Shown here: positions 1 through 21,611 of the stretch, piece after piece
Layout of the letters: every line of letters starts with the position of its first letter
Position numbering within the stretch: the first letter of the stretch is position 1
Virus record (IMG/VR): IMGVR_UViG_3300032219_001957
Span: 1-28,104 of that record
Source: a virus
Lineage: Duplodnaviria; Caudoviricetes
Length of the DNA: 28,104 bases
Strand: one strand, 5' to 3'
Notes under the pieces: model-generated
Seen by the model: only the letters and a program-made list of their open reading frames with translations
Database searches by the model: none
Told to the model about the DNA's origin: nothing
Position numbers and translations under genes: made by a program

Positions 1-84
1 ACTGACCTGTGTTCGCGGTATTCTGAGCCTGGTGCACCAGGGTCCGCTACTAGGGACTCAATCTTACTGTCTATCCCAAAATTT

Positions 85-159
85 TGGCGACCCTGAGGGG
101 AATCGAACCCCTATATTCCGCTAGACAGGCGGATATAATAACCACTATATGACAGGGCC
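85..159 (-). tRNA. tRNA-Asp(GTC)
   Basis: Cloverleaf GGCCCTG/CAGGGTC, anticodon arm TCCGC-CT GTC TA-GCGGA, T-loop TTCGATT, encoded CCA. Confidence 0.93.
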
Positions 160-164
160 AATAT

Positions 165-240
165 TGGCGCCGGGCGTGGTATTGAACCACATTCTCTTAA
201 GAATGATCAATTTCCTCAGACACACCATGTGAGACCCAGC
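165..240 (-). tRNA. aberrant tRNA-like gene (anticodon undetermined, possibly GAT)
   Basis: Acceptor GCTGGGT/GCCCGGC-G-CCA and T-arm GTGG-TTCAATA-CCAC present; minimal D-arm CACA-TGG-TGTG; irregular 8-9 nt anticodon loop ATTGATCA. Confidence 0.55.
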
Positions 241-247
241 ATTAATT

Positions 248-322
248 TGGTGGACCGTGAGAGGATCGAACTCTCACCTAGGACGTGCAAAGCCCCCGTG
301 CTCCCATTATCACTAACGGCCC
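248..322 (-). tRNA. tRNA-Ala(TGC)
   Basis: Cloverleaf with G3:U70 pair, loop TT TGC AC, encoded CCA. Confidence 0.95.
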
Positions 323-420
323 ATATATTTGAGACAGGTGTTTTACGAGACTCTACCTGCCAAGCTCGACGGTACGGTTGCATCCTTACCTGCAGGACGC
401 GAATGCAACTATCTAGCGTT

Positions 421-533
421 TGGTGGAGACAGCCTACACACAAGGATCCCTAATGTGCCGTACACTTTATCCGCTTATCTTAGCTACCTTCCAATACAGG
501 GAGGATTCATGCTAAAGATAAGTTTCAGTCTCC
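421..533 (-). ncRNA. CCA-terminated structured RNA, not a cloverleaf
   Basis: Terminal stem GGAGAC/GTCTCC followed by ACCA; internal hairpins CTTATCTTTAGC/GCTAAGATAAG and TACGGCACA/TGTGTGTA. Confidence 0.55.
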
Positions 534-743
534 AAAACTTGGTGGGTGGTGATACTAACGCTCCACGAGGCAACTTCCCAACTTAACAAAGCATAAATAG
601 ATGTGGTTAGGATATTGTACCACCAATATCTAACTCGAATCTTTATGACCCTTTCTACATTACCCATCCGTTGAATTGTGATCTTATACCTCACACTGAA
701 AACAACAAGAAGAAACACCGTTCTTCTATATCATATCAACAAT

Positions 744-873
744 TGGTGAGTGTAGTAAATGAATATGAAAAGTTGAGCAGGTCAGATTCGAACTGACACC
801 GGTTCCTAAGTAATGGGGTTACAGCCCACCGCGACACTAACCATATTCGCCTCTGCTCAACTTTTCATACTCC
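744..873 (-). tRNA. tRNA-Tyr(GTA)-like gene with 20-bp extended acceptor stem (core 774..859)
   Basis: Anticodon loop CT GTA AC, T-arm GTCAG-TTCGAAT-CTGAC; GAGTATGAAAAGTTGAGCAG pairs with CTGCTCAACTTTTCATATTC; CCA only 14 nt further 3'. Confidence 0.7.
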
Positions 874-879
874 ATATTT

Positions 880-956
880 TGGTACTCCCGGGTGGATTCG
901 AACCACCGACACGCGGCTTTGGAGACCGCTGTTCTACCAGGCTGAACTAAGGAGCC
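880..956 (-). tRNA. tRNA-Trp(CCA)
   Basis: Loop CT CCA AA, canonical D and T arms, CCA; acceptor stem imperfect. Confidence 0.85.
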
Positions 957-964
957 ATTTTAAA

Positions 965-1050
965 TGGCGAGATCACTAGCACCCCTCACACCGCATTCAA
1001 TATGATGAGGGCTAAGGCCGAATCACACGGCGAGCATGGTTGTGTATCTC
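965..1050 (-). ncRNA. CCA-terminated three-way-junction RNA
   Basis: GAGAT..CAC/GTG-ATCTC-G-CCA terminal stem; hairpins GCCG-TGTGATT-CGGC and CCCTCA/TGAGGG. Confidence 0.5.
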
Positions 1051-1059
1051 TAAAATTTG

Positions 1060-1243
1060 TGGTATGTTTTAGAATGATGACTGATAAAGCCTAGGCAGGG
1101 ATTGAGCCTACTCCTTCTGCCGTTTTCGGCAGACATGCATCCTTTACACTTCGAGGACCTAACTTAGCACCGCAGCAACGGGGGTCGTTAGTTCAGTCAA
1201 CAACCTACTGCTAAGTTGCTGCTTATCAGTCTAAAAAATACCA
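1060..1243 (-). ncRNA. ~180-nt structured RNA with embedded tRNA-like core and ACCA end
   Basis: Long terminal stem GGTAT-TTTTTAGA-CTGATAA / TTATCAG..TCTAAAA-C-ATACC-A; inside are D-like GTGT-AAAGGAT-GCAT, TCTGCCG-AAAA-CGGCAGA and T-like GTAGG-CTCAATC-CCTGC. Confidence 0.55.
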
Positions 1244-1350
1244 TATTGAAACACACTAATAAGAATCGCACTCCCTTAGTTCTTACACTAAGTTACGACA
1301 AGGAGTCACAGACTGGATCGGCAGTCCTGCTAGTTAATGTATTTCAATAT
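1243..1350 (-). ncRNA. structured RNA with 17-bp terminal stem
   Basis: ATATTGAAATACATTAA/TTAGTGTGTTTCAATAT with G-U pairs favouring the minus strand; inner hairpins GACTG/CAGTC and CTTAGT/ACTAAG. Confidence 0.5.
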
Positions 1351-1372
1351 AGTGTCTTTTTAAGACACTAAA

Positions 1373-1476
1373 AGCTAGGATTTTTCTGTCTCACAAGAGA
1401 GACTCCATCCTCTAGCCCGACCGTTTGTCCATGTTTTAAGTGCGGACTAGGACCTCGTTTCCCATACACACTTACT
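1373..1476 (-). promoter_or_regulatory. structured leader motif, copy 1 (boxA-like loop)
   Basis: Shares two identical 17-mers at identical spacing with 10880..10923; covarying stems; directly downstream of promoter 1499..1527. Confidence 0.65.
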
Positions 1477-1498
1477 GCTCACTACTTACTACACCAAC

Positions 1499-1527
1499 AT
1501 TATCTCATACTACTGATTTAATGTCAA
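1499..1527 (-). promoter_or_regulatory. sigma70-like promoter
   Basis: TTGACA-N17-GATAAT. Confidence 0.7.
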
Positions 1528-1724
1528 TCTCAGTTTTACGATACTGAGAAACGTCATGCCTGTCAGCTATCAGGCTGCTTTGCTACTTGCTATGAAAAAC
1601 TCTGTATCATTTCCCACCGTTTTTCGCTATCGCTACTCGGGCAGTTGATTTCTTCGTTTTTCACAGCATACAAGCATTATACAATCACCATTTATTGTCA
1701 AACTTCGACCTAAGATTTTTATTC

Positions 1725-1744
1725 TGGCGCGTCCGGAAGGATTC
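1725..1744 (-). pseudogene. 3'-terminal tRNA fragment (Arg-like)
   Basis: GAATCCTTCCGGACGCGCCA = half T-arm, 3' acceptor strand and CCA, fused to the stop codon of the endonuclease ORF. Confidence 0.7.
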
Positions 1745-2612
1745 ATCCTTTGCGCTTGAAACATTGATTTTCAAAAAATTCAGGGTGATAAGTTTTCATC
1801 CACCCGTTTATTTTTTGCGAAGAGATTCCCAATACTACTGCAACTTTTGACACCCAACCATATACTGAAAAATCCATATTGTGGTAAAAAATTTCATTTT
1901 TTCTAGATTCCCATTTTATCCGTGTTTGTTCTTTTATTTTCTGCCCTCTAGGTAGAGTGAAATTTTTTTTCTTGTTGTCTCTTATTTGTTTTGCTTCAAA
2001 GTATGATTCAACTATTCCTGAATTATCAAATGGTATATCGAAATTAAGAAATTGGGCAATTGCATCTTGCGAGAAACACTGTGAATAATGAACCTCAATG
2101 AGGCGCCATCCGGCTTGTTCAATCAAATTATGACGATTTTGATAGTATGTTTTTAACTTGCCAGCTCTATCGTAATGCTGATTTCCGTTTATTTCAATAC
2201 CCAATTTTATGTGGGGAAATGCAATATCGATTGAAAATGCACGATTTTCTAATGGAGTCAGTTCTTCAACAAATTGAATTCCTCGTTGTGTTAAATATTC
2301 TTTAACATTGTTGCAAGGAACTGAACTAAATTTATCCTTTCTTTTCCACGGATGTTTATTTGGATTTTCTTTTAGAAATTGTTTTCGTTTGTCAGAAAGA
2401 ATTTGTTTAGTGTCAATAGACACAGTATGAGCACACTTATTACTGCATGTTTTTCTTCTTCTACCTACAAACTCAGCTTCACATACTTGACATTTTTGAA
2501 TAAAATTCACTTTTTGTCGTTGTCTGTTTGGATTTTCATTACACCATCGACTATGTGCGCCTGCATTATTGGAATTTTCTATTTCAATCCCGCAGTATTT
2601 ACATTTAAACAT
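1743..2612 (-). CDS. Vsr/DUF559-like (very-short-patch-repair fold) homing endonuclease with N-terminal Zn-binding motifs
   Basis: CxxC motifs; FSIDIAFPHIKLGIEINGNQHY...RHNLIEQAGWRLIEV motif. Confidence 0.8.
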   Translation of the reverse strand: MFKCKYCGIEIENSNNAGAHSRWCNENPNRQRQKVNFIQKCQVCEAEFVGRRRKTCSNKCAHTVSIDTKQILSDKRKQFLKENPNKHPWKRKDKFSSVPCNNVKEYLTQRGIQFVEELTPLENRAFSIDIAFPHIKLGIEINGNQHYDRAGKLKTYYQNRHNLIEQAGWRLIEVHYSQCFSQDAIAQFLNFDIPFDNSGIVESYFEAKQIRDNKKKNFTLPRGQKIKEQTRIKWESRKNEIFYHNMDFSVYGWVSKVAVVLGISSQKINGWMKTYHPEFFENQCFKRKG

Positions 2613-2678
2613 TTCGAACTTCCTTTATTCAAACTAGGTGATCGTATTTATGCAATCAGTTCGAATTTTTAAAAATTA

Positions 2679-2754
2679 TGGTCAGCCCACCTGGACTCGA
2701 ACCAGGACTATAAATTTAGAAGAATTATGTGATATCCGCTTTCACTATGGGCTG
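2679..2754 (-). tRNA. tRNA-Arg(TCT)
   Basis: CAGCCCA/TGGGCTG, loop CT TCT AA, D-loop GGATA, CCA. Confidence 0.92.
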
Positions 2755-2771
2755 TGTATCGCAATGTAAAG

Positions 2772-2800
2772 AGTATACTCTATGTTGGATTTATTGTTAA
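2772..2800 (-). promoter_or_regulatory. sigma70-like promoter
   Basis: TTAACA-N17-TATACT upstream of tRNA-Arg(TCT). Confidence 0.6.
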
Positions 2801-2856
2801 AAACTTGGTATCATTCTCGTAAAGAATGTCTACCTTTAATGATAGCAGTATTTAAA

Positions 2857-3140
2857 TGGTTCCGGATGTCGGATTTGAACTGACGACCTACCGCTTACCT
2901 TACCACTTCGACTTTCGGCGCCGACTTTCGTCGTTCGTGGTCTGGACTTTGCCTTCACCGTTGCTTGCGCTTTAGGTGCCTGCCGTCAAGTCTCTACACC
3001 TTCAACAGTATTTCTACTGAAGCTTGGCTCGGCGTTATCATTTTACAGACTTCGCCGACTTTGACAGGTTCTACTCCCACCGTTTCCAATGGGGCACTCG
3101 TATATTCAAGGCGGTTGCTCTACCCCTGAGCTAATCCGGA
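2857..3140 (-). tRNA. tRNA-Thr(TGT), intron-containing (exons 3140..3108 and 2898..2857)
   Basis: Joined exons give TCCGGAT/ATCCGGA acceptor, ACCGC-CT TGT AA-GCGGT anticodon arm and CCA. Confidence 0.9.
2899..3107 (-). ncRNA. group I intron, 209 nt, compact IC3 (Azoarcus tRNA-Ile-like) type, no ORF
   Basis: Core motifs GGTGTAGAGACT.GACGGCA, CACCTAA, GGTGAAGGCA.AGTCCAG; P1 CTT|G-AATATA-CGAG with U.G at splice site; terminal G. Confidence 0.92.
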
Positions 3141-3164
3141 ATTGATACTAAAACAACTAAACTT

Positions 3165-3240
3165 TGGCTGGCTTACTTGGGTTCGAACCAAGGACAACCT
3201 GGTTAACAGCCAGGTGCTCTACCAACTGAGCTATAAGCCA
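3165..3240 (-). tRNA. tRNA-Asn(GTT)
   Basis: Canonical cloverleaf, loop CT GTT AA, CCA. Confidence 0.95.
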
Positions 3241-3274
3241 TCATAAAACTTTTTACAAAACTATTTATTAAATA

Positions 3275-3303
3275 AGTATAACTCAAAAACATTTCATTGT
3301 CAA
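3275..3303 (-). promoter_or_regulatory. sigma70-like promoter
   Basis: TTGACA-N17-TATACT upstream of tRNA-Asn. Confidence 0.75.
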
Positions 3304-3875
3304 TCTGTTTCCAACAACTCGCCTACCCGATCCATTACCATATCCCAATGATCCATGAATCTATGCCCACCTGTTTCAACCACACTAGTCATCGCAGTAT
3401 GCTTAAAATATTCTAGGGGAATCTCGTAAGGGATAACTTCATCATCTTTTGCTACAAACAGATTGATTAGGTTGCCATTGTACTCCCTCTCCGCATGTTC
3501 CCGCATACTTTTCATTGAATCTAAATGCGCTAACTCTACCATGAATTCTTCATTCGTGGCGTAGTTTTTATTCATGCCCAGCTTACTGCGAAGAGTTTCG
3601 CTGGGCTTACAGCTGGGGTTAACTAAGATTGCGGGCGTGTCGTGAATCATAGCATAATAGTTGGCATAGAAACCACCTAAACTAGTACCCACGAAAACTA
3701 ATTTCTTGAACCCGCTATAGTTTTCATGTATCAGCTTATACACTACATCGTCTACTTCTTCCGGGTCAAACGGCAGATCAGGGGCAAAAACATTTTCTGC
3801 GCCAAACTTTTCGCATAGCGCATCTACTTTACTACTATTGCCTGAACTACCAAAACTATGTAGATAGATTATCAT
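3300..3875 (-). CDS. YqiA/YcfP (UPF0227) family alpha/beta hydrolase (esterase)
   Basis: IIYLHSFGSS N-terminus, GTSLGG nucleophile elbow, DDEVI and GGHRF triad motifs. Confidence 0.88.
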   Translation of the reverse strand: MIIYLHSFGSSGNSSKVDALCEKFGAENVFAPDLPFDPEEVDDVVYKLIHENYSGFKKLVFVGTSLGGFYANYYAMIHDTPAILVNPSCKPSETLRSKLGMNKNYATNEEFMVELAHLDSMKSMREHAEREYNGNLINLFVAKDDEVIPYEIPLEYFKHTAMTSVVETGGHRFMDHWDMVMDRVGELLETD

Positions 3876-3906
3876 TTTGACCCCAGGAAATTCTTATTTA
3901 AGCTAT

Positions 3907-3935
3907 ATCTTATTACAAGGGGTATTTATTGTCAA
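3907..3935 (-). promoter_or_regulatory. sigma70-like promoter
   Basis: TTGACA-N17-TAAGAT. Confidence 0.55.
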
Positions 3936-3944
3936 ATATTAGGA

Positions 3945-4565
3945 TCATATATCACCCAGGACTTCTTTTGGATCTAGCCCCATACTTCTAAGTTGGGTTA
4001 TTCCTTCGGGCGATAAATTAACGAATCCCAGGATTAACTTTTCATGGGGTTCGCCCTGTATCAATCTAGTATAGTGAAACCCATCTGGGTTTAAATCTAA
4101 TACTTTTTTGCCTGTTAAAAACTCAGCAAATTTATTGGGTACTGGTTTGGCTCCCATCCTTAACATTAACTTTTCTGCCGGGCCACTTATTTCTACCCAA
4201 GCTCTGCTAAACGTTATGTCTTCGTGTTTGACCATCATGAGGTCTTTTTTGCCCTGTCTAGTTGCTACATATATATTCTTTTCGGGGTCTAACTCTGTTT
4301 CTGTTGCACTTGCAATCCCCTTCAAATTTTTAGTTTTTGCCACTAGCTTATATATGCCTAGCGCAGTTATTTTATCACCACGCTGCACCAGTTTCCAAAG
4401 TCCGGGGGTATCTATCAGTTCTTCGACGGCGGCTGCACTTTTGAACCCACCAACTTTTTGATAGGATTTGTTAAACATATCCCAAACTATGTCAGCATAC
4501 TCAGCCTTTTGTTCAGGAGTCCACAAATTGATTACCCGCTCTGCTAAAAATTCCAATGATTTCAT
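3945..4565 (-). CDS. hypothetical phage protein (ORF track starts at 4598; ATG 4565 preferred)
   Basis: Long ORF; ATG 4565 lies 5 nt after a TAAATA motif. Confidence 0.75.
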   Translation of the reverse strand: MKSLEFLAERVINLWTPEQKAEYADIVWDMFNKSYQKVGGFKSAAAVEELIDTPGLWKLVQRGDKITALGIYKLVAKTKNLKGIASATETELDPEKNIYVATRQGKKDLMMVKHEDITFSRAWVEISGPAEKLMLRMGAKPVPNKFAEFLTGKKVLDLNPDGFHYTRLIQGEPHEKLILGFVNLSPEGITQLRSMGLDPKEVLGDI

Positions 4566-4598
4566 AGTGGTATTTATCTTGGCATTGCGGATAATCAT

Positions 4599-5159
4599 TT
4601 AGGACAACAAAATTCTACTGTGTTTGGGAACGCCCGCTAACAAATATTCCATTTGATCCGCAAGAATGTTTCTGCTTTGTAGGATCATATTTTCAAAATG
4701 TGATGGCGCATAAGGGACGTATAACAGTTCCATACGGGCTTCTTTTAGCGTTTTGCTTCCTTTATTGGAGTTACAGGTTTTGCATGCAGTGATACAGTTA
4801 AGCCAAGTGTTTTGGCCGCCCCTACTTTTGGGGACAATATGGTCCCTACTCAGGTTATTAACATTGGGGAAATGTCCACCGCAGTACGCACAAACATTCC
4901 TATCTCTACCGAACAGTGTTCGGTTGGATAATGCCACAGTTGCATGTTTGTGTGGGTTGAAACCCTGGCCCTTGATCGCAATTATACTAGGAGTTTCGAT
5001 GTAACTCATTGTACCATCTTGCTGAATGCCGCCCCGATATTTAGCCACAATTTCACCCATGCTCCAAGCTACAGATTTTGTGGCGTGGTATGCGATTGCA
5101 TCATCATATCCTATCCATTGTCTAGGTGTTCCTGAAATATCCAATGCTAATACGGGCAC
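4599..5159 (-). CDS. HNH endonuclease (McrA-like, HNH_5 type)
   Basis: LFGRDRNVCAYCG...SRDHIVPKSRGG...WLNCITACKTCNSNKG; GTG start with AGGAG RBS. Confidence 0.92.
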   Translation of the reverse strand: MPVLALDISGTPRQWIGYDDAIAYHATKSVAWSMGEIVAKYRGGIQQDGTMSYIETPSIIAIKGQGFNPHKHATVALSNRTLFGRDRNVCAYCGGHFPNVNNLSRDHIVPKSRGGQNTWLNCITACKTCNSNKGSKTLKEARMELLYVPYAPSHFENMILQSRNILADQMEYLLAGVPKHSRILLS

Positions 5160-5206
5160 GATAAACTCCTTTTTAATTGGTACTTGTACCTCTATTTACT
5201 ACAAAT

Positions 5207-5246
5207 TGGCGGGTCATGAGAGATTCGAACTCCCGACTACTGGTTT
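5207..5246 (-). pseudogene. orphan 3' half of a tRNA
   Basis: AAACCAG-TAGTC-GGGAG-TTCGAAT-CTCTC-ATGACCC-G-CCA; the 5' half is replaced by the upstream region of the endonuclease gene. Confidence 0.8.
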
Positions 5247-5259
5247 GATAAATAAACAT

Positions 5260-5949
5260 ATGAATACTTGTAAACATTGTAAAAATATCATCCCACCAGT
5301 TAAATATAAAAAACTATTTTGCACGAAAAGTTGTGCGGCAAAATTTAATAATTTAAATCGATCTCCTCGAACCTATGAATCAAAACAAAAAACATCTGCT
5401 ACTTTAAAAAATTTAATCGTCACAGGAGCGATACCAACACCTATTCCCCCAAAAAGATATCCATATCCTTATACTAAATTATACGGGCAATATATCTGTC
5501 ATTCTTGTGATAAGAATTTTTGGCAAATCTCTGCTGGGCAAAAATGCTGCTCAATTTCTTGTCGAGACAACATTCGTTCGCAAAATAAATGTAAGAAAAC
5601 GCAAATTGCGTACTACAATAAAAATGACAACTGTATTGTAAATTTACAGTCTACATGGGAAGTCAAAATTGCAATTTGGTTAGACGATAATAATATTGTA
5701 TGGTCTCGTCCATCTAAACGTATTAAATGGTACGATACTACTCTACAAAAATACAGAACATATCTTCCTGACTTTTATCTCCCAAATTATGATTATTATT
5801 TAGATGTTAAAAATCCAGTTAAAATGGAAGAGGATAAGGATAAACTTACTCAATTAATTTCTCTTATGCCTTTGTGTGTAGGTAACATACCAGAAATTAA
5901 AAAATATGTGGAGGGCCTGACAGGGGTCGAACCTGCATGTATCCATTAG
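5260..5949 (+). CDS. PD-(D/E)XK-type homing endonuclease with Zn-binding motifs (ORF track start 5026 is too early)
   Basis: QSTWEVKIAIWLD...YLPDFYLPNYDYYLDVK; CxxC repeats; ATG 5260 follows TAAATA; 3' end overlaps a tRNA antisense. Confidence 0.82.
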   Translation: MNTCKHCKNIIPPVKYKKLFCTKSCAAKFNNLNRSPRTYESKQKTSATLKNLIVTGAIPTPIPPKRYPYPYTKLYGQYICHSCDKNFWQISAGQKCCSISCRDNIRSQNKCKKTQIAYYNKNDNCIVNLQSTWEVKIAIWLDDNNIVWSRPSKRIKWYDTTLQKYRTYLPDFYLPNYDYYLDVKNPVKMEEDKDKLTQLISLMPLCVGNIPEIKKYVEGLTGVEPACIH

Positions 5950-5986
5950 CTTTCTCTTGGTTCGAAGCCAAGCGGCATACAGACCC
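5909..5986 (-). tRNA. non-canonical tRNA-Arg(TCG), D-loop displaced 3' of the anticodon arm
   Basis: GGGTCTG/CAGGCCC-T-CCA; CTTGG-CT TCG AA-CCAAG 7 nt after acceptor; AGCTAATGGATA before T-arm. Confidence 0.75.
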
Positions 5987-5992
5987 AATATT

Positions 5993-6089
5993 TGGTAGTA
6001 GACCAGGGATTCGAACCCTGCCGTTCCAGCCCATCTGACCAGTCTCCGGGAATTATAAAGCCCCGCCGCACAACCAAGTGCTGTCTACC
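5993..6089 (-). tRNA. tRNA-Ile(TAT)-like gene with long variable arm
   Basis: GGTAGAC/GTCTACT-A-CCA; CGGGG-C-TT TAT AA-T-TCCCG; ~25-nt variable region. Confidence 0.7.
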
Positions 6090-6092
6090 ATT

Positions 6093-6175
6093 TGGCGGAT
6101 AGTATAGGATTCGAACCCATGTTCTCTTTCGAGCCGCCTTATCAAGACGGTGCCTAACCATTCGGCCAAAGCGGC
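6093..6175 (-). pseudogene. chimeric tRNA: Ile(GAT) body with non-matching Ser-like 3' acceptor strand
   Basis: 5' GCCGCTT cannot pair with 3' ACTATCC-G-CCA; D, anticodon (TT GAT AA), variable (CTC-GAAA-GAG) and T arms intact. Confidence 0.7.
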
Positions 6176-6226
6176 AAATAAATCCTTTATGTTTTTACAG
6201 GCATACGCTGGAATGACCACACTAGC

Positions 6227-6769
6227 TCACCCTCCTTTTTCTTTCCAACGATGCTTTTGCTTCATTATTTCTGAATGTCTTTTTTTGTACTCATCCGAAA
6301 AAGGTTTTCTTTCTCTAGATTTTGCCTTTTCTGAAATTTTAGCGCGAGTTTCATCAGAAATTGAATGACCTTTCTGACCTTTCATTTTACAAGAAATTTT
6401 TTGTTTTTGCTCCTCAGACATTGGTTTGCCTTTAGTAGCTTCACTTCTAATAATGCTATATTCTTTTTTAATCGTTTCGTATAAACGAGCATTTATATAA
6501 CGATATTGTTTTGATGTAGAACCTTTCATAAGCATTAAAGCATGGAGCATTTTAACATAATTTGGTTTATTATTTTTATTGATTTTAACTAATAAAACAT
6601 GACATACGAAATGTTCTTTCGCTGTCAATAAAACCAAATTATCTTTTTTATTACTTCCTCCCAATGATTTAGGAATAACATGATGGTTTTCAAAATAGCC
6701 TAGTTTTCTGTCTCTATTTTTAGAACGCGCATTTTGTATAATGTCATGGTATATTTTTTCGTAGTTCAT
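6227..6769 (-). CDS. HNH homing endonuclease with NUMOD3 repeats
   Basis: ENHHVIPKSLGGSN..NLVLLTAKEHFVCH; KGKPMSEEQKQKIS and HSISDETRAKIS. Confidence 0.92.
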   Translation of the reverse strand: MNYEKIYHDIIQNARSKNRDRKLGYFENHHVIPKSLGGSNKKDNLVLLTAKEHFVCHVLLVKINKNNKPNYVKMLHALMLMKGSTSKQYRYINARLYETIKKEYSIIRSEATKGKPMSEEQKQKISCKMKGQKGHSISDETRAKISEKAKSRERKPFSDEYKKRHSEIMKQKHRWKEKGG

Positions 6770-6812
6770 AAAAATCCCTTAACATTATTTATTCCTTTAA
6801 CACTAGGTAAGC

Positions 6813-6989
6813 TTATTTTGTTACTACTTTTTTAAGCGCATCTTTTCGCATAAGCATAACTCTGACGTTGCCCATGCGAGTCACTCTAATATATTCTACA
6901 CCTTCAATAATTTCTGGATTCTTGAGGTCAATATCTGAGCATTCAACTTTTTCTTTATTCCAGATATTTTCAAATGTCAATGTTTTCAT
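6813..6989 (-). CDS. small hypothetical protein, 58 aa (not in ORF track)
   Basis: MKTLTFENIWNKEKVECSDIDLKNPEIIEGVEYIRVTRMGNVRVMLMRKDALKKVVTK; GGAG RBS upstream. Confidence 0.7.
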   Translation of the reverse strand: MKTLTFENIWNKEKVECSDIDLKNPEIIEGVEYIRVTRMGNVRVMLMRKDALKKVVTK

Positions 6990-7057
6990 CACGCAACTCC
7001 ATTAAATTTTGGGGTGACAAATATTTATCGAACTCTAAACAAATAATAAATAATAAT

Positions 7058-7918
7058 ATGTATAAACTAATAAACTGCGCTATTTGCCATCGTGACTTTA
7101 ATGGTCAAATATCAGGCAGTCATCTAAAAACTCACGGCACAAATATTCGTGACTACGAACTAAAATACGGCCCAACACGCGACCCTCAACTTATAATCGA
7201 TACCAAGCTTGGTGGCAAGAAAGGAGGAGGCGGAAATCAAAAATCCATTGATGCCAGCAAAATCAAGAGCCAAAAACAACAAGAAAAATATCTATTAAAT
7301 CCAAAAATTTGTTTTACTTGTTCTGAATTGATCCCGTATAATAATCGGTATAATAAGTTTTGTTCTCATTCTTGTTCTGCTATATCTAATAATAGACAAC
7401 GAATTGAATCTGGCTGGACTTTGTCGCAAGAAAGTAGGGATAGCATTCGACACAAACTTTCGAAGCCATCGATCTTTTTTGGACCGTATAGCAGGATATC
7501 TACTAAAACTTGTAAATTTTGCAGAACCCAATTCATTACACCGACTACTAATCAACCTCAAGTATGTAAGAATTGCCAACATCTAAAATGGAATAATAAT
7601 AAAGATCAGTACTCATTTAGATTTAATATATTTAATTATCCTGATTTGTTCGATTTAGATAATTTAACCAAAATAGGATGGGTAGCATTTGGCGGGAAGC
7701 GAGGAGGAAAGAAAAATGTTAATGGGTTATCCCGTGATCATCGCGTCTCGGTAAATGAAGCAAAAAAATTCAATTATGATCCTCACTATATATCACATCC
7801 ACTAAATTGTGAACTAATGCCGCACCATCAAAATAATAAAAAGAAAACAAAATCATCACTATCTTACGAAGAACTAGTTAAATTAGTTGACGAATATGAT
7901 AATAGGGGTGACCACTGA
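7058..7918 (+). CDS. HNH-type homing endonuclease with Zn-binding motifs (ORF track start 6974)
   Basis: SRDHRVSV...ISHPLNCELMPHHQNNKK; CxxC motifs; ATG 7058 lies 5 nt after TAAATA. Confidence 0.8.
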   Translation: MYKLINCAICHRDFNGQISGSHLKTHGTNIRDYELKYGPTRDPQLIIDTKLGGKKGGGGNQKSIDASKIKSQKQQEKYLLNPKICFTCSELIPYNNRYNKFCSHSCSAISNNRQRIESGWTLSQESRDSIRHKLSKPSIFFGPYSRISTKTCKFCRTQFITPTTNQPQVCKNCQHLKWNNNKDQYSFRFNIFNYPDLFDLDNLTKIGWVAFGGKRGGKKNVNGLSRDHRVSVNEAKKFNYDPHYISHPLNCELMPHHQNNKKKTKSSLSYEELVKLVDEYDNRGDH

Positions 7919-7979
7919 GAAGTTTCACTCAGACTATAACTTTCACAGAGTTAGGTGCCTATTTTACACTATGATCACC
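7904..7979 (-). tRNA. tRNA-His(GTG)
   Basis: G-1 GTGATCA/TGGTCAC-C, loop CT GTG AA; atypical T-loop TGAAACTT; ends CCT rather than CCA. Confidence 0.85.
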
Positions 7980-8000
7980 CCTATTATCACATTGATCCAC

Positions 8001-8122
8001 GGGATACATTTTTTAGACGAATGCTCTACCCCTGAGCTACTATACAATATGTTTCCATATCATACAGGGTGGATTTGAACCACCGACCAACCGTTTTCAA
8101 AATATTTTGCTGTTAGTATCCC
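8001..8122 (-). ncRNA. YrlA/Y-RNA-like circularly permuted tRNA mimic
   Basis: Terminal stem GGGATAC/GTATCCC; order T-arm, acceptor stem closed by a GAAA loop, D-arm. Confidence 0.75.
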
Positions 8123-8128
8123 AAATTT

Positions 8129-8204
8129 TGGTCTGGGTAGCAGGATTTGAACCTAGACCTCTTGACTCCAGATCAAGAACGCTACCAAGTTACGCTATAG
8201 AGAG
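8129..8204 (-). tRNA. tRNA-Pro(TGG) with defective 5' acceptor strand
   Basis: D-arm GCGT-AACTTGGT-AGCG, loop TC TGG AG, 3' TACCCAG-A-CCA; 5' strand CTCTCTA is the end of the HNH ORF. Confidence 0.65.
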
Positions 8205-8656
8205 TTATTCTTTTTCCAAGATTCTATATATGAAAGAACCTTATCTTCAATTAATGATCGGTACTTACTATGCCAATATTGATGATGCGTTGGGCATAGC
8301 GGTATTAAATTTAATGAGTGATTATTTTTCTTGTTATGATCCATATGGTGGACTGCGACTATTTTATCTTCACCGCATACAACACATTTTCTTTCATGAT
8401 GTTCAAAGCAGGTTGTTTGGTATCTTTCTGGCTTCCAATTGCCGTGGTTTTCCCCTGTTCTGAACAATTTATTAGCGCAAGCGTGGGAACATGATCCTTT
8501 CGACTCTCGCCAATTAAAAATTGGATTATCGCATATTTTGCACAATCTAATATTATCAGGATGCAAATGGCAGACGGCATCATGTCTTGAAACACTGTGT
8601 GGGAAAATTAATTTCTCACAATGCTTGCATTTAATTTTTGATGATTGCAGTAACAT
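8195..8656 (-). CDS. HNH homing endonuclease
   Basis: CVVCG...VAVHHMDHNKKNNHSLNLIPLCPTHHQYWH; AGGAG RBS. Confidence 0.92.
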   Translation of the reverse strand: MLLQSSKIKCKHCEKLIFPHSVSRHDAVCHLHPDNIRLCKICDNPIFNWRESKGSCSHACANKLFRTGENHGNWKPERYQTTCFEHHERKCVVCGEDKIVAVHHMDHNKKNNHSLNLIPLCPTHHQYWHSKYRSLIEDKVLSYIESWKKNNSL

Positions 8657-8708
8657 AAATTATCTCCTGATTGTATTTATCACAAACGGAGAGATTTGAA
8701 CATCAATT

Positions 8709-8745
8709 CAAGCTGTGCCGTCTACCAAGTTGACAATATACCCAG
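8709..8745 (-). pseudogene. 5' half of a tRNA-Pro
   Basis: CTGGGTA-TAT-TGTC-AACTTGGTA-GACG-G-CACAG-CTTG then breaks; T-loop remnant GTTCAAATCTCTCC follows. Confidence 0.7.
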
Positions 8746-8846
8746 TTAATTCTTGACTGCCCGCCCCCAACCACGCTAGCAGCCTTGCTCAGCCTTGAAG
8801 TAGCTGTGCCCCTATAACTTTTGACGCCTTAGTGCGTCGATAGTTC

Positions 8847-9245
8847 TTACAAATCTAATGCTGTTAAAAGCTTTTTCATTACTAGAGTATTAGGATCACG
8901 AAACTTTTCAGTATCTTGAAACCCCAAAAGAACACCTGCTTGTGTTACTGCACCACTACGGTATATACCAGCCATGCAGTGTACTACAACATTCATTCTA
9001 TTGTCAAGTGCATGTACCAACAATCTAGCAATTTTTTCTGCTTGCTCATCATTGATTGGTGTAGCCCAAGACAATTGTTCTTCTACATCATCAAATTTAA
9101 ATCTATGTACTTCACGAAAATTACGCTTAGACCTAGGAAAATCAACTATAGGATCTACAATCTGTATAAGCATAGCGTTAGGTCCAGGCTCAAAATGATG
9201 ACCTGCTTGAATATCTTCAAACGAAACATTTTCAATCCAAGGCAT
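8847..9245 (-). CDS. protein-tyrosine/dual-specificity phosphatase family protein
   Basis: VVVHCMAGIYRSGAV = HCxxGxxRS P-loop; FDD acid loop. Confidence 0.88.
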   Translation of the reverse strand: MPWIENVSFEDIQAGHHFEPGPNAMLIQIVDPIVDFPRSKRNFREVHRFKFDDVEEQLSWATPINDEQAEKIARLLVHALDNRMNVVVHCMAGIYRSGAVTQAGVLLGFQDTEKFRDPNTLVMKKLLTALDL

Positions 9246-9264
9246 GATTTTGTCCTTAAAAATT

Positions 9265-9341
9265 TGGTAGAGACAGCCGGGATCGAACCGGCGACCTCGG
9301 GCTTATGAGACCCGCGTTACTTCCAACTGAACTATGTCTCC
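9265..9341 (-). tRNA. tRNA with CAT anticodon (elongator Met or Ile2)
   Basis: Cloverleaf, loop CT CAT AA, CCA; no C1:A72 initiator mismatch. Confidence 0.9.
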
Positions 9342-9375
9342 ATATTATACAACAGATAAAATGATTATTTGTCAA

Positions 9376-9452
9376 TGGTACCCTAGGGGAGATTTGAACT
9401 CCCAATTCCTACGTGCTCAACGTAGTGACTCTACCAATTCGTCCACTAGGGC
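9376..9452 (-). tRNA. tRNA-Leu(GAG) lacking the long variable arm
   Basis: CTACG-TT GAG CA-CGTAG, 5-nt variable loop, A73, CCA. Confidence 0.85.
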
Positions 9453-9459
9453 ATTAATT

Positions 9460-9550
9460 TGGCAGTGAGTGAGGGATTCGAACCCTCGCGCCGTATAATA
9501 CGACCATCATCTTTCCAGGATGCTCCCTTAAGCCTCTCGGGCAACTCACT
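9460..9550 (-). tRNA. tRNA-Ser(GGA)
   Basis: Type II cloverleaf, loop CT GGA AA, G73, CCA. Confidence 0.93.
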
Positions 9551-9551
9551 A

Positions 9552-9626
9552 TGGTGTTCAGTACTGGAATTGAACCAGTGACCTCTATCGTGTCAAGATA
9601 GCGTTCTTCCGCTGAACTAACCGAAC
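9552..9626 (-). tRNA. tRNA-Val(GAC)
   Basis: Cloverleaf, loop TT GAC AC, CCA. Confidence 0.93.
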
Positions 9627-9632
9627 AATCTA

Positions 9633-9706
9633 TGGTGCTCCCAGCTGGTAACGCTCCAGCTTCTCGGCTATACCAAAGCCGTGTAATTCTTTTATACTAT
9701 GAGAGC
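9633..9706 (-). tRNA. tRNA-Thr(GGT)
   Basis: Loop TT GGT AT; atypical T-loop AGCGTTA; CCA. Confidence 0.85.
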
Positions 9707-9712
9707 CAATAG

Positions 9713-9821
9713 TGGAGCAGCTAACTATCTACCTGAGTAGACCTTATTAGCGGGTCACAAATAAAGAAGTATGTAGGGGCTCAACTTTATCGTCTAGCTC
9801 AAAAATTTGCTGTTAGCATCC
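9713..9821 (-). ncRNA. putative ncRNA sharing the GGAT(A/G)CTAACAGCAAA 5' motif with 8001..8122
   Basis: 5' GGATGCTAACAGCAAA; 3' GTTAGCTGCTCCA can pair with it; no tRNA-like domain. Confidence 0.45.
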
Positions 9822-9827
9822 TTAAAC

Positions 9828-9907
9828 TGGCACGCCCGGAAGGCTTCGAACCTTCATGTATCCAGTTAACCTTTCAACTGGTTCGTAGCCAGAGGGTATA
9901 CAGACGC
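9828..9907 (-). tRNA. non-canonical tRNA-Arg(ACG), D-loop displaced 3' of the anticodon arm
   Basis: GCGTCTG/CGGGCGT-G-CCA; CTGG-CT ACG AA-CCAG; GGTTAACTGGATA before T-arm; same layout as 5909..5986. Confidence 0.75.
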
Positions 9908-10568
9908 TTTTAATTTTTTCATATATCTATAATGTACGCCACTATCATTTAGCCCTAGGTGAAATAAAGCGGGTCTAATTTTACCATCGAACAGTCTTAA
10001 CGCACTTATCTTTTCTTCGTCGGAGAAATACATTTTCTGTTTTTTCTGTCTAATAGGTCCAGCAGGTTTACAATTAGTACACCATTTCGCTTTATGTGAT
10101 TTAGTGTCGTCACTGCAAACTATACATTGGGTGGTTTTTTAGTTTCACTTATTTTTTTTACATATCTTCCCTTAACCCAGCCGGTAGGTATATCACAATC
10201 AGTGAATTTACCATTTTCAAGAGTTATTGGGTTAGTATACCATTTTTTACCAAAACTTCCGTTTTTTGCGCCCAGTCGTTGTTTAGCGACAAGACTGTTT
10301 CTTCGTCTCAACCAACCGTAAAGTTTGTTTGATTTTCTTCCGGCGCACATCATAATGGCAGCATAGACCAACCCTTTATGGTTTGGGTGTATTTTAACTA
10401 ACAACTGATGGCGATGTAATGTTCTTCTAATGTCAGTTTGACAATATTTTTTGGATCATTATCACCTCCCATACATCTTGGGATAATATGATGATTTTCA
10501 AATTCATCAATAGTTATTCTCTGCTGCGCCCTGTATATCAATTTATCATATATGGTTTTGTAGTTCAT
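9866..10568 (-). pseudogene. HNH homing endonuclease with two frameshifts (~10413 and ~10135)
   Basis: Frame 1 MNYKTIYDKLI...ENHHIIPRCMGGDNDPKNIVKLTLEEHYIA; frame 2 HQLLVKIHP...WYTNP...GWVKGR; frame 3 CIVC...KASVYPLATNQLKG ends inside the tRNA. Confidence 0.82.
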
Positions 10569-10602
10569 TAAGTATTTAACTTTTGCGAACTAGATATATA
10601 AA

Positions 10603-10641
10603 TTCGTAGCCAAGTACTCTGGTCCACTGAGTTACGGGCGT
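10603..10641 (-). pseudogene. 5' half of a canonical tRNA-Arg(ACG)
   Basis: ACGCCCG-TA-ACTC-AGTGGACCA-GAGT-A-CTTGG-CT ACG AA then breaks. Confidence 0.85.
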
Positions 10642-10647
10642 ATTATT

Positions 10648-10721
10648 TGGCAGGGGTATCAGGATTTGAACCTAAACTACTTCAGTCAAAGTGAAGGGTG
10701 CTGCCGTTACACTATACCCCA
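10648..10721 (-). tRNA. tRNA-Gln(TTG)
   Basis: Cloverleaf, loop CT TTG AC, CCA. Confidence 0.93.
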
Positions 10722-10814
10722 ATTGACACACTCTTACGAATGTGTGTAGTAAAGCATACCAAGTCTTAAAGTCCAACGATGATTTTACGACCAGCCTGAT
10801 ATGCTTTACTACTC

Positions 10815-10928
10815 TACCATTTTACCATCTATGTTAACGCCATAGACTTCTCATCCGGTAGGCCGCCCTCATTATAGCCCCATGTTTTAAGTGCGGGGCA
10901 GGATCGCGTTTCCCATACACACTCACTA
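10815..10928 (-). promoter_or_regulatory. structured leader motif, copy 2 (boxA-like loop)
   Basis: AGTGTGTATGGGAAACG and CCGCACTTAAAACATGG identical to copy 1; stem GCCCC/GGGGC versus GTCC/GGAC. Confidence 0.65.
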
Positions 10929-10931
10929 CAT

Positions 10932-10967
10932 AACAAAAAACCCTGAGACCTTTCGATTCTCAGGGTT
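10932..10967 (-). terminator. intrinsic terminator (attenuator) ahead of the tRNA array
   Basis: AACCCTGAGA-ATCGAAAGG-TCTCAGGGTT running into TTTTTTGTT. Confidence 0.85.
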
Positions 10968-11007
10968 AAGATAAAAGTGTATTTTTACATTTTACCTGTT
11001 CCCTGAG
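10960..11007 (-). promoter_or_regulatory. antiterminator hairpin mutually exclusive with the terminator
   Basis: CTCAGGG-AAC-AGGTAAAA-TGTA-AAAA-TACA-C-TTTTATCT-TAA-CCCTGAG, 19 pairs; sequesters the terminator 5' arm. Confidence 0.75.
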
Positions 11008-11123
11008 TGTCCTCTTTGGACATTATAACCTCGGATACTTGTGGGCATTACCTTCGCAAAGGATTGCCCGGCCGATAATGACCAAAGTTCCATATGCTGG
11101 GTAATAGTTGAAAAGTTATTCAT
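10992..11123 (-). CDS. putative attenuator leader peptide, 43 aa (not in ORF track)
   Basis: MNNFSTITQHMELWSLSAGQSFAKVMPTSIRGYNVQRGHSGNR; ATG 7 nt after TAAATA; stop codon inside the antiterminator 5' arm. Confidence 0.7.
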   Translation of the reverse strand: MNNFSTITQHMELWSLSAGQSFAKVMPTSIRGYNVQRGHSGNR

Positions 11124-11190
11124 AGTAAGTTATTTAGTCTAAAGTTAAAAAAATGATTAATTACTGCTGTTTTTTAATGATTTGAAGTGG

Positions 11191-11219
11191 ATTATACACG
11201 GGGATGATTATTTTGTCAA
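11191..11219 (-). promoter_or_regulatory. consensus sigma70 promoter upstream of the leader ORF
   Basis: TTGACA-N17-TATAAT. Confidence 0.85.
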
Positions 11220-11228
11220 ATATCAATT

Positions 11229-11807
11229 TTACCAATTCCTAGTTCCATCACCTGCTTTTACTAACCAACCTATTTTTAGTAAATCTTTTTTAATTTCATC
11301 GGTAACTATTCCTTCAGCAACCGAAGCCAATTTTTCTTTGTATGCTTGTTTTTGGTCCTCACGCAAGTCATCAAAAACAAACCCCTCATTTTCAGCACAA
11401 TCTACAATGCCCGAACAGTACCAATCCATATAGTCACCCTCTGATCTAATAGCAGCAACTATGCCTCCTGCACTACGCCATGTACATGACCAAATAATTT
11501 CTTGTAGTATTGGCCAAGGCTCATTTTTGATGAAATCATTGTTACAAAGTGCGGCATATAAATGTTGCGAGTATAGTTTATCTTTACATTTGTCTACTAT
11601 ATAAGCAGACATCCTCAAATCATATTCTAGATTATCAATGCCCCATTTAGAATTTTCGGAAGAGTATTCAACTGCCTTTTTATCATAATACTCGACCATG
11701 GCCTTAACATCATCACTGTTTTCAATGGTATTACCAAGAGCAGCCTGTCTAGCAAGATATTGCTCTTTTTCAGAATCAACCCTTTGGATACCTGATTTAA
11801 ATATCAT
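11229..11807 (-). CDS. hypothetical phage protein (ATG 11807 preferred over 11867)
   Basis: TAATG overlap with upstream stop; contains WSCTWRSAGGIVA..EGDYMDWYCSG. Confidence 0.8.
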   Translation of the reverse strand: MIFKSGIQRVDSEKEQYLARQAALGNTIENSDDVKAMVEYYDKKAVEYSSENSKWGIDNLEYDLRMSAYIVDKCKDKLYSQHLYAALCNNDFIKNEPWPILQEIIWSCTWRSAGGIVAAIRSEGDYMDWYCSGIVDCAENEGFVFDDLREDQKQAYKEKLASVAEGIVTDEIKKDLLKIGWLVKAGDGTRNW

Positions 11808-17814: not shown

Positions 17815-18465
17815 TTAATATTTTCCTGATGCTAAAACTATACGACAAACATGTTCAAGCCGTTCTAGGTGTTCATAAGCACGCCATGGACTAGTATCTA
17901 TAGAAACAACGCCGTGGCCCTTGATACCTACGATATCATATAGCATATTTCCATCTGAGTCAAGTCCCAAATGTTCATGGCATTTGGTACCCAATTCTTC
18001 AGATATTGGTGCTACTACACCCACACTGGGTGCTACTCGGGTATACCGACTTAGTTCTGGAAAGTCATTGACCAATTCATCTAGTTTTATTCCCGCGTGC
18101 ATAGCAGCAACAATATATGTTGGATGAAGGTGAACTACAACCCGTATATCATTGCTTCCCATTTCTTTTTGTAATCCAAAGTGTAGGGGCAATTCACCAC
18201 TGGGCTTTAAGTTTTTGCTGATATCAGTATACGGCATTTCATTACAAGTATAATTGAAATTTGCAGTGCCCATTCCGCTTCGTATAGTCCGGCTAATCCC
18301 AATTTTTTTAAATTGGTCGGGTTGTAGGGTTTGCTTTCTAACACCACTGGGGGTTATATAGAAATAATCATGGGCTCGGTCGCGCATGCTGATATTACCA
18401 TCACGGCTAGTAATCCAATTTCTATTGTAAGCGTCGGTTAATATTTCGCAAATCGTTTCTAGCAT
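17815..18465 (-). CDS. class II aldolase/adducin family protein (intact copy)
   Basis: SRDGNIS, ITPSG, PSGELPLH, VVHLHP, GHGVV...LERLEH. Confidence 0.92.
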   Translation of the reverse strand: MLETICEILTDAYNRNWITSRDGNISMRDRAHDYFYITPSGVRKQTLQPDQFKKIGISRTIRSGMGTANFNYTCNEMPYTDISKNLKPSGELPLHFGLQKEMGSNDIRVVVHLHPTYIVAAMHAGIKLDELVNDFPELSRYTRVAPSVGVVAPISEELGTKCHEHLGLDSDGNMLYDIVGIKGHGVVSIDTSPWRAYEHLERLEHVCRIVLASGKY

Positions 18466-18861
18466 TATGTAGTCCTCAAGATAGTTATCATACGTTTAGC
18501 AAGCTCTTGGAACCATTGAGCATCATGTCCCCTAGTAGTTTCGGCAGCTACTCCAATACGCACGCCGGATGTTTCTACAAAACTCCTAGTCTCACCTGGA
18601 ACTCCATTCTTGTTAACTGTAATACCGTGTGTTTCAAGTAAATCCGCATATTGTCGACCACTTAGGTGTTCTTTACGAAGGTCTAACGTAAACATATGCG
18701 ATTTAGTTCCACCACTTACCACATCAACCCCTGTATCCAAAAAAGTCTGTGCCATTGCTTGCGCGTTAATCTTAATTTGTTTTGCGTATAATTTGAAATC
18801 AGGTTGTAGTGCTTCATAAAAGCACTGTGCTTTGGCTGCAATTACATTCATCAATGGCCAC
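18465..18861 (-). pseudogene. glyA: serine hydroxymethyltransferase C-terminal fragment
   Basis: PLMNVIAAKAQCFYEA...VVSGGTKSHMFTLDLR...ITVNKNGVP..TSGVRIG; N-terminal PLP-binding domain absent. Confidence 0.88.
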
Positions 18862-19419
18862 AACCCCATGTCCCTTGATACCTACAATATCAAATTTGAT
18901 ATTGCCTGCTGAGTCTAATTCCAAATTGCAATGACATGCATCAGCAAGTTCTTGACTGATGGGTGCTACATCTCCTACATTGGGTGCTACCCTTGTGTAA
19001 CGATTGAGTTCTGGAAAACTATCACTGATTGTACTCAAATCAATACCAGCATGCATGGCTGCAATACAATAGGTCGGATGAACATGCACAACTACTCGTA
19101 CATCATCCTTGTGTTGCCCCATTTCTTTTTGCAGTCCAAAGTGTAGTGGAAGTTCTCCCCTAGGCTTTAGATTTTTGCTAATATCAGTATACACTAATTC
19201 TTTGCTTACATGATATGATCGAGGAGGTTGGTCATAGTAACCTTTCTCAATGCCAATCTTTTTGAATTGATCCGGTTGCATTGTCTGCTTACGCACGCCC
19301 GACGGTGTGATATAGAAGTGATCACGGTCGTGATGACGAATAGAGATGTTGCCATCTCTACTGGTTATCCAATTGCGTTTGTACGCATCGACTAATATAT
19401 CACAACAGGTTTCTAACAT
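18814..19419 (-). pseudogene. class II aldolase/adducin family protein, C-terminally truncated paralog
   Basis: Aligns with 17815..18465 up to GHGVVAID, then runs out of frame into the glyA sequence. Confidence 0.82.
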
Positions 19420-20387: not shown

Positions 20388-21476
20388 TTAAAGTTTGCAC
20401 GACTCGCAGCCATCTTCCTCGTCAAAATTAATAGGCTCTAGTGTTTCAGATGGGTAATCTTCTTTAAGTGATTTACTTCCTTGTTTATTCACCAAACTGT
20501 AATAGAAGGTCTTGATTCCGAGACGATGTGCTTCCATTAGGTTTTTAGCGATTAGGGTAGTTGGTATTTTACGGTCCGGAAAATGTGCTGGATTATAAAA
20601 AGTATTCACCGAAATACTTTGATCAACATAGGCCGCTAACACAGCCGCTGTTTTCAAATAATCAGCACAGTCCTTTTGGTCCCACATTAATTGATACTTT
20701 GATTTCAATTTATGATACTCAGGAACTACTTGTACAAATGATCCTGCTTTGCTTTCTTTTACTGAAATCAAAGACATCGGCATTTCTATACCGTTAGTCG
20801 AGTTAATAACTACTGAGGAACTTTCCACGGGCGCGATAGCGGAATTTGTAGCATTACGTACCCCTGATATTATCATGCGGGCCCGCAGAGGCTCCCAATC
20901 TAATTCCGGAGTAAAATCGGCTAAGTCATTGACCCCGTTGGCGCGTAGTTCCCAGGGAAAAATACCCTTACCATATCTAGTTTGGTCACTATTCAAACAT
21001 TTTCCCCGTTCTTCGGCAAGTTCAACAGACATTTCAGTCAAATAAAAGGTTTGATGTTCCATCCAAGATTTTACTTCTTGAAGTGAGTCTTGATTCCCAT
21101 ATTTTAGGCCCCGCTTGGCATGCCAATACGCCAAATTAGTAACTCCAATGCCCAATGGACGAATCTCATCATTGCTTAATTTAGACTGGATAGATAAGAA
21201 ATCTTGATAATCAAGTATGTTATTGAGGCTACGGTGTAAGATTCTACAGGCTCGGCGCATATCTTCTGGGTGTCTAAAACTCCCCCAATTAATGCTTCCC
21301 AATGTACATAGGGATATTCGGCCGGTATCATCATCTAATCTTTTAAAACTTTTTGTGGGCAAAAGTATCTCGCAATTATGGACAAGAATGTTGTCGGCAA
21401 AGAAACACTTTGTTTCAGGGACTGATATGTCAAATACATCAGTTGGCTCTACTGCAATCTTTCTAATTTTAATCAT
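20388..21476 (-). CDS. nrdA: NrdA part 3: IntC2 (21476..21375, 34 aa) + C-terminal extein
   Basis: VFDISV..FFADNILVHN|CEILLP; LGIGVTNLA, APVESSS, KTFYY, terminal CESCKL. Confidence 0.95.
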   Translation of the reverse strand: MIKIRKIAVEPTDVFDISVPETKCFFADNILVHNCEILLPTKSFKRLDDDTGRISLCTLGSINWGSFRHPEDMRRACRILHRSLNNILDYQDFLSIQSKLSNDEIRPLGIGVTNLAYWHAKRGLKYGNQDSLQEVKSWMEHQTFYLTEMSVELAEERGKCLNSDQTRYGKGIFPWELRANGVNDLADFTPELDWEPLRARMIISGVRNATNSAIAPVESSSVVINSTNGIEMPMSLISVKESKAGSFVQVVPEYHKLKSKYQLMWDQKDCADYLKTAAVLAAYVDQSISVNTFYNPAHFPDRKIPTTLIAKNLMEAHRLGIKTFYYSLVNKQGSKSLKEDYPSETLEPINFDEEDGCESCKL

Positions 21477-21610: not shown

Positions 21611-21611
21611 A

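Follow-up and report, generated by a model that had tools for sequence, protein, structure and literature searches.

Long and untranslated, the ribosomal RNA (rRNA) operons face both Rho and pausing, and the boxA element is a short linear motif bound by NusB/NusE (PMC8632103, available part). In phage T7, the boxA located behind the early promoters is likewise an antitermination element (PMC3709561, available part). Few RNAs are known to render the polymerase termination-resistant by their own fold, among them put, EAR and RARE (PMC8632103), where put in phage HK022 is a 73-nucleotide (nt) V of two stems with a triplex (PMC9378689, available part). Structured RNAs also occur with phage transfer RNAs (tRNAs), e.g., the theta ribozymes, which are hepatitis delta virus (HDV)-like, proposed to process 3' trailers and endowed with a catalytic C in J4/2 (PMC10879173, available part), and the rnaC and rnaD RNAs of T4, i.e., structured non-tRNA molecules of 120-140 nt at the 3' end of the tRNA cluster. 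The present analysis concerns an RNA motif of about 100 nt occurring on the minus strand of a stretch of 28,104 nt from a virus of the Caudoviricetes (IMG/VR record IMGVR_UViG_3300032219_001957, positions 1 to 28,104), the whole of which is hereafter called the window, where its copies precede arrays of tRNA genes.

Like boxA of rrn, lambda nut and T7, the motif sits at the head of long untranslated transcripts apparently made by the host polymerase, before RNase III-type stems, and a short form of it occupies the boxA position in T7 relatives devoid of boxA. It differs from the short linear NusB/NusE site (PMC8632103) in being folded over 70-100 nt without a boxA sequence, its look-alike bases being paired and dispensable. 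With putL and putR, the motif has in common a promoter-proximal place in the nascent RNA, a comparable size and a structure in two domains, the second stem bearing an internal loop, which makes put the model for the proposed mechanism, although the available part of PMC9378689 makes no mention of a pseudoknot. The theta ribozymes are similarly phage-encoded, tRNA-associated and doubly pseudoknotted small RNAs, whereas after the motif the first tRNA follows at a distance of about 180 nt, and only 4 of 88 representatives have one in the 500 nt preceding it. Compared with the nested helix order of the HDV-like ribozymes, the covarying helices of the motif stand in another order, with no conserved C after its helix P4. 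The T4 RNAs show no match to the model of the motif. Judged by the features tested, the motif falls outside the boxA and theta families and probably outside the put family. No description of it was found in the literature searched, which covered few subscription papers, and it may figure unnamed among the 8,495 candidates that Fremin et al. (2023; PMC10690425, available part) obtained automatically from IMG/VR.

Fold and family of the motif

The repeat is real and corresponds to two minus-strand copies of the motif. Two 17-mers occur exactly twice each, on the minus strand at 1472/10923 and 1445/10896, lying 27 nt apart in each copy with the copies 9451 nt apart, which bears out the shared stretches and equal spacing reported in a first-pass annotation of the window. 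Any repeated 17-mer was encountered in 8 of 100 Markov-resampled 28-kb windows; two co-spaced ones are expected to be far rarer by chance. The two copies make up the repeat family D10, with 88% identity over 48 nt, and score 93.9 and 70.6 bits with a covariance model whose training alignment includes both; scanning the window with this model gave no third copy.

Through pattern scans of IMG/VR and metagenomes, at least 492 loci were fetched, in which nhmmer gave at least 262 matches and at least 147 distinct members; reduced below 85% identity, these yielded 107 representatives, over which the structure was established from anchored column counts. Covariation supports a fold made of a double-pseudoknot 5' domain followed by an internal-loop hairpin, with helices named P1 to P5. 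P2 is capped by AACGNGR, its three inner pairs form in 107/107 and its closing pair varies among A-U, C-G, U-A and G-C. Covariation is strong for P3 and P4, with native stem scores of 4.46 and 5.36 versus 2.68 and 3.90, respectively, when the halves are swapped between sequences. It is weaker for P1, which joins a 5' GUG to the CAC of the boxA-like stretch (5.00 versus 4.71 +/- 0.06 swapped, the register being fitted) and for the most part invariant, covariation being seen at its edge (A-U 80, U-A 9, C-G 5 and G-U 3 of 101). P1 and P3 cross, forming an H-type pseudoknot with an A-rich linker. For the second pseudoknot, position 7 of the P2 loop finds its partner in the third base of AAYGGKCGG, a strand further downstream (G-C in 91, A-U in 15 and mismatched in one of the 107). 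Joint changes number about 12-14, versus 1-6 for control columns, as counted on trees that omit those columns and are rough, being built from 70-130 nt. Loop and strand each also contain a CG that is invariant; the two CGs can pair, and we infer this CG/CG pairing rather than read it from covariation. P4 and P5 enclose a GAUGRA/AAAAA internal loop, and P5 ends in a loop of the UYUUGU type or in GCGNNAA. The bases 5' of P1 are unconserved.

In a MAFFT alignment of 55 members, paired cells amounted to 81.6%, versus 66.2% after shuffling and 30-47% in slid registers. The G-U pairs fall on the tRNA-sense strand, which fixes the strand of the RNA. AACG.G and CGG were kept in all 83 members listed from a scan freeing the loop and strand positions, and in all 32 listed from a scan freeing the whole 5' half; as such, the invariance of the core is no by-product of the search patterns.

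In the window, copy 1 (1374..1473, minus strand), identified by repeat, fold and covariance model, exhibits P1 at 1473-1468/1443-1438, P2 at 1464-1460/1452-1448 with the loop AACGAGG (1459-1453), P3 at 1447-1444/1430-1427, a joining strand at 1425-1417 as partner of the P2 loop, P4 at 1416-1412/1378-1374, and P5 at 1403-1399/1392-1388 with the loop TCTTGT. Copy 2 (10814..10924, minus strand) has the loop AACGCGA (10910-10904), P4 at 10861-10857/10818-10814 and the other P5 loop type, the 7-nt GCGTTAA; its A10904 pairs with T10871 at the position where copy 1 has G1453-C1423. The alternative stems noted at first pass, namely GTCC/GGAC versus GCCCC/GGGGC and GCTAG/CTAGC versus CTACC/GGTAG, are present in the copies. 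An extra ATG/CAT stem suggested by the two copies was rejected, as it is unconserved in the family.

Over the motif, in the window and five further loci, no family of Rfam 15 matched, whether at gathering score or with E relaxed to 10. A likeness to glmS, SAH, c-di-GMP-II and cobalamin cores, as we presume these to be built, was dropped for want of an Rfam match and because the covarying pairs differ. Searching family members by blastn against cultured phages returned nothing, or short chance matches in coding regions. GTDB genomes gave 6 pattern matches and no member by hidden Markov model (HMM), with a pattern that recovers just 53 of the 147 members, so that absence from bacteria is not established. 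Whatever its function, the motif constitutes a well-supported, uncatalogued structured RNA with an invariant core.

tRNA arrays and the module preceding them

The positional link to tRNA arrays holds well beyond the window. Among the 83 representatives with at least 500 nt of sequence downstream, the motif is followed by a same-strand tRNA at up to 500 nt in 68 cases and at up to 1 kb in 77, the median distance to the first one being 179 nt (Tyr 26, Gln 10). No opposite-strand tRNA lies near the motif in the representatives, and non-members matching the same pattern have a tRNA in 0 of 15 cases.

The window, a contig making up the entire record, encodes ribonucleotide reductase genes, HNH-like open reading frames (ORFs) and minus-strand tRNA arrays, with an NrdB at most 60% identical to that of any cultured phage. 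Its promoters suggest that it belongs to a large phage, uncultured so far, which relies on a host polymerase of the sigma70 type for transcription. Copy 1 starts about 20 nt after a putative sigma70-type promoter with an extended -10 (11/12 match, 1527-1499, minus strand) and copy 2 about 10 nt past the U-run of a terminator (10965-10940), both in agreement with the first-pass annotation. Downstream of copy 1 come Trp, Tyr, Ala, Ile-like and Asp tRNAs (85..955, minus strand), in an array running off the contig end. The copy 2 unit is headed by a 12/12 promoter match (11191..11219, minus strand), likewise identified from the consensus, and comprises Gln, Thr, Val, Ser, Leu and Met together with weaker tRNAs (5199..10721, minus strand), interrupted by HNH-like and small ORFs. 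That the motif heads these two units was correctly seen, but calling them "both" overstates the case, since a third promoter-headed unit (11/12 match at 3303-3275, before tRNA-Asn) is without it; the motif thus heads two of at least three units. The terminator before copy 2 is an intrinsic hairpin with a U-run (10932..10965, minus strand), the sole one found by scanning the minus strand over 1-11300. It is preceded by a 43-codon leader peptide carrying the invariant Trp of its family (10992..11123, minus strand), whose 3' end CTCAGGG (11007-11001) is complementary to the 5' arm of the terminator, hence a predicted attenuator.

Across the family, the module is ordered as promoter, leader peptide, attenuator, optional small gene, motif, long stems and tRNAs, of which copy 2 represents the form lacking the small gene, with copy 1 standing behind a bare promoter. 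Upstream of the motif, a terminator-like hairpin is present within 400 nt in 83/88 representatives, at distances clustering at about 7-37 or 160-260 nt (a count made without shuffled control), a leader peptide of the Trp-invariant type in 75/88 (profile built from 43), and an ORF of 55 amino acids (aa) whose stop abuts the motif in 55/88 (e.g., L307:821-985, plus strand). The leader peptides, of 35-55 aa, share only the invariant Trp, often end in DR-x-P or IRG and have no NCBIfam match; such ends recall what we take to be those of ribosome-arrest peptides.

After P4, long perfect stems are found in 81 of 102 members with a loose pattern. They are of the type AAAGCAU...GUGCUUUA and resemble T7 RNase III substrates, as a likeness only and on site positions that we assume for T7. 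In the window, the long stems P6 and P7 fold between copy 2 and tRNA-Gln (10726..10812, minus strand), P6 being the one that may be compared to these substrates. The stems between motif and first tRNA (10726-10812 and 1245-1345, minus strand; loci L070, L053 and L065) contain multibranch inserts that differ from case to case and frequently include GCATAGC mini-hairpins; the 3' stem arm of L070 is one mismatch from boxA. A riboswitch with its own terminator was considered and rejected, the stems downstream of the motif having no U-run.

BoxA and the short form in T7-like leaders

At first pass, the motif was credited with a boxA-like loop resembling those of rrn and lambda nut. This loop, CGCACTT, is not free but pairs with the upstream AGTGTG in P1, in the minimum free energy folds of both copies as well as in about 100 of the 107 representatives. 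The resemblance itself does not survive comparison: each of the 107 differs from the rrn string by 3 mismatches or more and has A instead of U at position 4, and the bases after CAC vary freely, the first covarying with the 5' strand. Eight of the 107 are one mismatch from the shorter string of the annotation, and the AAA following CAC is nearly invariant. Exact boxA occurs near family members in 1 of 69 loci. The likeness is one to the A-rich linker of the pseudoknot.

Thirteen T7-like leaders were examined out of 552 records with a T7-leader match, i.e., T7 with nine taken from the spread of the 552, and a further three, Ebrios, KFSA9 and Rambo. In IME15, the leader has no boxA and matches the family HMM (E 1.8e-4, nhmmer), and blastn with this stretch finds IME15, PZL-Ah1, Ebrios, avDM11-UST, KFSA9 and Rambo. 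The four carriers IME15, Ebrios, KFSA9 and Rambo are all without boxA (best match 3-4 mismatches), while the nine other leaders, T7 included, all possess a boxA (0-1 mismatch) and no motif. Motif and boxA are therefore shown to be mutually exclusive in these 13 leaders.

The short form starts 13-20 nt after the last host promoter, ahead of an R0.3-like stem, and adjoins the anti-restriction gene 0.3. It keeps the P2 hairpin with its AACG loop, the CGG strand and P4/P5, but a 5-nt linker replaces the entire P1/P3 domain, including the boxA-like bases, and loop and strand form five consecutive pairs. Between IME15 and Rambo, nine differences are spread across the element, of which eight make four compensatory pairs, including the loop-7 pair. 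With the covariance model run over 88 kb, the short form reaches E-values between 4e-4 and 8e-4. Scanning for more short forms returned 21 matches, namely IME15, one full-length member and 19 apparent chance matches, and blastn of the IME15 form against Escherichia coli genomes gave no match. The host of Ebrios is E. coli C. Separately, a second small covarying structure (GCG AAGG CAC ... ACCC AA CGC) follows the short motif in phages of the IME15 group and in Rambo (L502:737-790, L504:581-612).

Candidate functions and neighbouring features

On balance, we lean towards the motif being a cis-acting element of processive antitermination in the nascent RNA, which would do the job of boxA by another route without containing boxA. 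It must be first in the transcript, serves T7-like leaders that have an RNase III cut immediately behind it, and is present where boxA was lost; taken together, these features are most simply explained by an action during transcription. Of the earlier guess of an antitermination or processing element, the outcome is supported by the position across the family and by the short form replacing boxA, whereas the stated reason, a NusB/NusE boxA loop, is not. The motif would fold on leaving the host polymerase and bind, through its invariant core, either this enzyme or an elongation factor. The tRNA precursor, untranslated over kilobases and presumably exposed to Rho and pausing like the rRNA operons, would thereby be protected from them, and the RNase III-like stems downstream would then cut the leader off. 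Direct binding to the polymerase, as for put, which causes read-through in cis by binding the beta' zinc-binding domain independently of factors, and recruitment of a factor may both be compatible with this scheme. If antitermination holds, the motif works like a known kind of element, i.e., RNA-based antitermination. As a tentative extension, in which we place distinctly less trust, it could represent a third class of RNA-only processive antiterminator, namely a modular double-pseudoknot RNA polymerase aptamer placed before attenuator-gated tRNA operons of lake jumbo phages, which would have moved into T7-like phages and displaced the Nus-dependent boxA, so that these phages would no longer depend on NusB/NusE. 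Should antitermination be right, the motif, as a widespread new class, would reveal how tRNA arrays spanning kilobases are transcribed in phages with no ribosomes involved, would offer a natural boxA-for-RNA swap to dissect, with a minimal form of 70 nt in a cultured E. coli phage, and would provide a compact cis part for expressing long non-coding transcripts.

Several observations weigh against antitermination. In about 60% of the loci, the attenuator is found some 200 nt upstream and a small ORF immediately precedes the motif, away from the promoter; the arrays of the window contain no intrinsic terminator to override, Rho sites being unreadable from sequence, and one tRNA unit of the window does without the motif. 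Member L299 has an exact boxA 366 nt downstream. No RNA run was listed among the sequencing runs carrying the motif. Neither HMM nor covariance model gave a match in HK022 27000-36000, the region that we take to contain put, which is not annotated in that record. As for the T7-like leaders, the E-values of the short form are modest and pattern-preselected chance loci reached 2e-3, so that its identification rests on score, unmodelled 5' features and position together; the four boxA-less carriers belong to at most two lineages and may reflect a single swap of a leader block, and the leaders examined make up 13 of the 552 records.

Among the other explanations, the one that survives best, though we consider it unlikely, is a small stable RNA cut from the head of the transcript by RNase III-like cleavage and acting in trans, one possible role being that of decoy or aptamer towards a defence protein of the host; the first place would then only ensure early and high expression. 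The RNase III-like stems after P4 in most members would release such an RNA, the neighbourhood of gene 0.3 would suit an anti-defence role, and other stable RNAs do occur in phage tRNA regions, such as T4 rnaC and rnaD. A trans-acting RNA need not come first, however, yet a tRNA precedes the motif in just 4/88; it does not call for two copies per genome each heading a unit, it leaves the loss of boxA in the carriers unexplained, and the T4 RNAs, located at the 3' end of their cluster, do not match the motif.

Somewhat less probable still is a self-cleaving ribozyme, or a fold for 5' processing or protection, parting the tRNA precursor from the translated leader. A double pseudoknot that combines an A-rich internal loop with some 20 bases hardly ever varying, either unpaired or in short pairings, is an architecture known in small ribozymes, and the 5' edge of the motif abuts a stop codon in 55/88 loci. 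The theta ribozymes illustrate the use of ribozymes by phages at tRNAs (PMC10879173). Nonetheless, no Rfam ribozyme matches even with E relaxed to 10, the sequence 5' of P1 is unconserved, the start site is a mere 13-20 nt away in copy 1 and the T7-like form, leaving nothing to be separated, and a cut downstream would detach the motif from what it should protect.

It is improbable that the motif serves as the binding site of the 55-aa protein, in an N/nut-like antitermination or autoregulatory pair. Encoded directly upstream in 55/88 representatives, this protein forms a stand-alone family of 329 clusters with an invariant K and R; it is predicted as two helices (pLDDT 88.7) and has no convincing Pfam or PHROG family and no fold match in the PDB. 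The adjacent ORF is absent in 33/88 loci, though, no homologue is encoded in the window, which is an incomplete genome, none is annotated beside the T7-like form, and the protein is not arginine-rich, unlike N. Finally, that the CGCACTTAAAA stretch be a boxA variant bound by NusB/NusE, perhaps exposed when P1 unfolds, is very improbable despite the eight near matches and the nearly invariant AAA, given the universal A at position 4, the absence of any sequence near the rrn string, the variable bases that follow, with the first of them covarying, and the loss of the whole domain from the T7-like form.

Apart from the motif, some further features of the window, all on the minus strand, can be mentioned. 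Between copy 1 and tRNA-Trp (955-1345) lie several odd tRNA-like or hairpin elements, with a weak tRNA-Arg call at 1251-1341. The tRNA-Thr(UGU) at 2857-3140 bears a structured insertion of 209 nt after the anticodon (ARAGORN with introns, relaxed score), which looks like a small group I-type intron and has no Rfam match. The gene for the large subunit of ribonucleotide reductase (20388-26469) is distributed over three ORFs around a nuclease-like ORF of 917 aa, with intein-like segments as read from the translations. At 17815-19419, two diverged gene copies, 71% identical over 168 nt and presumably class II aldolase-like, flank a fragment that we take to resemble serine hydroxymethyltransferase.

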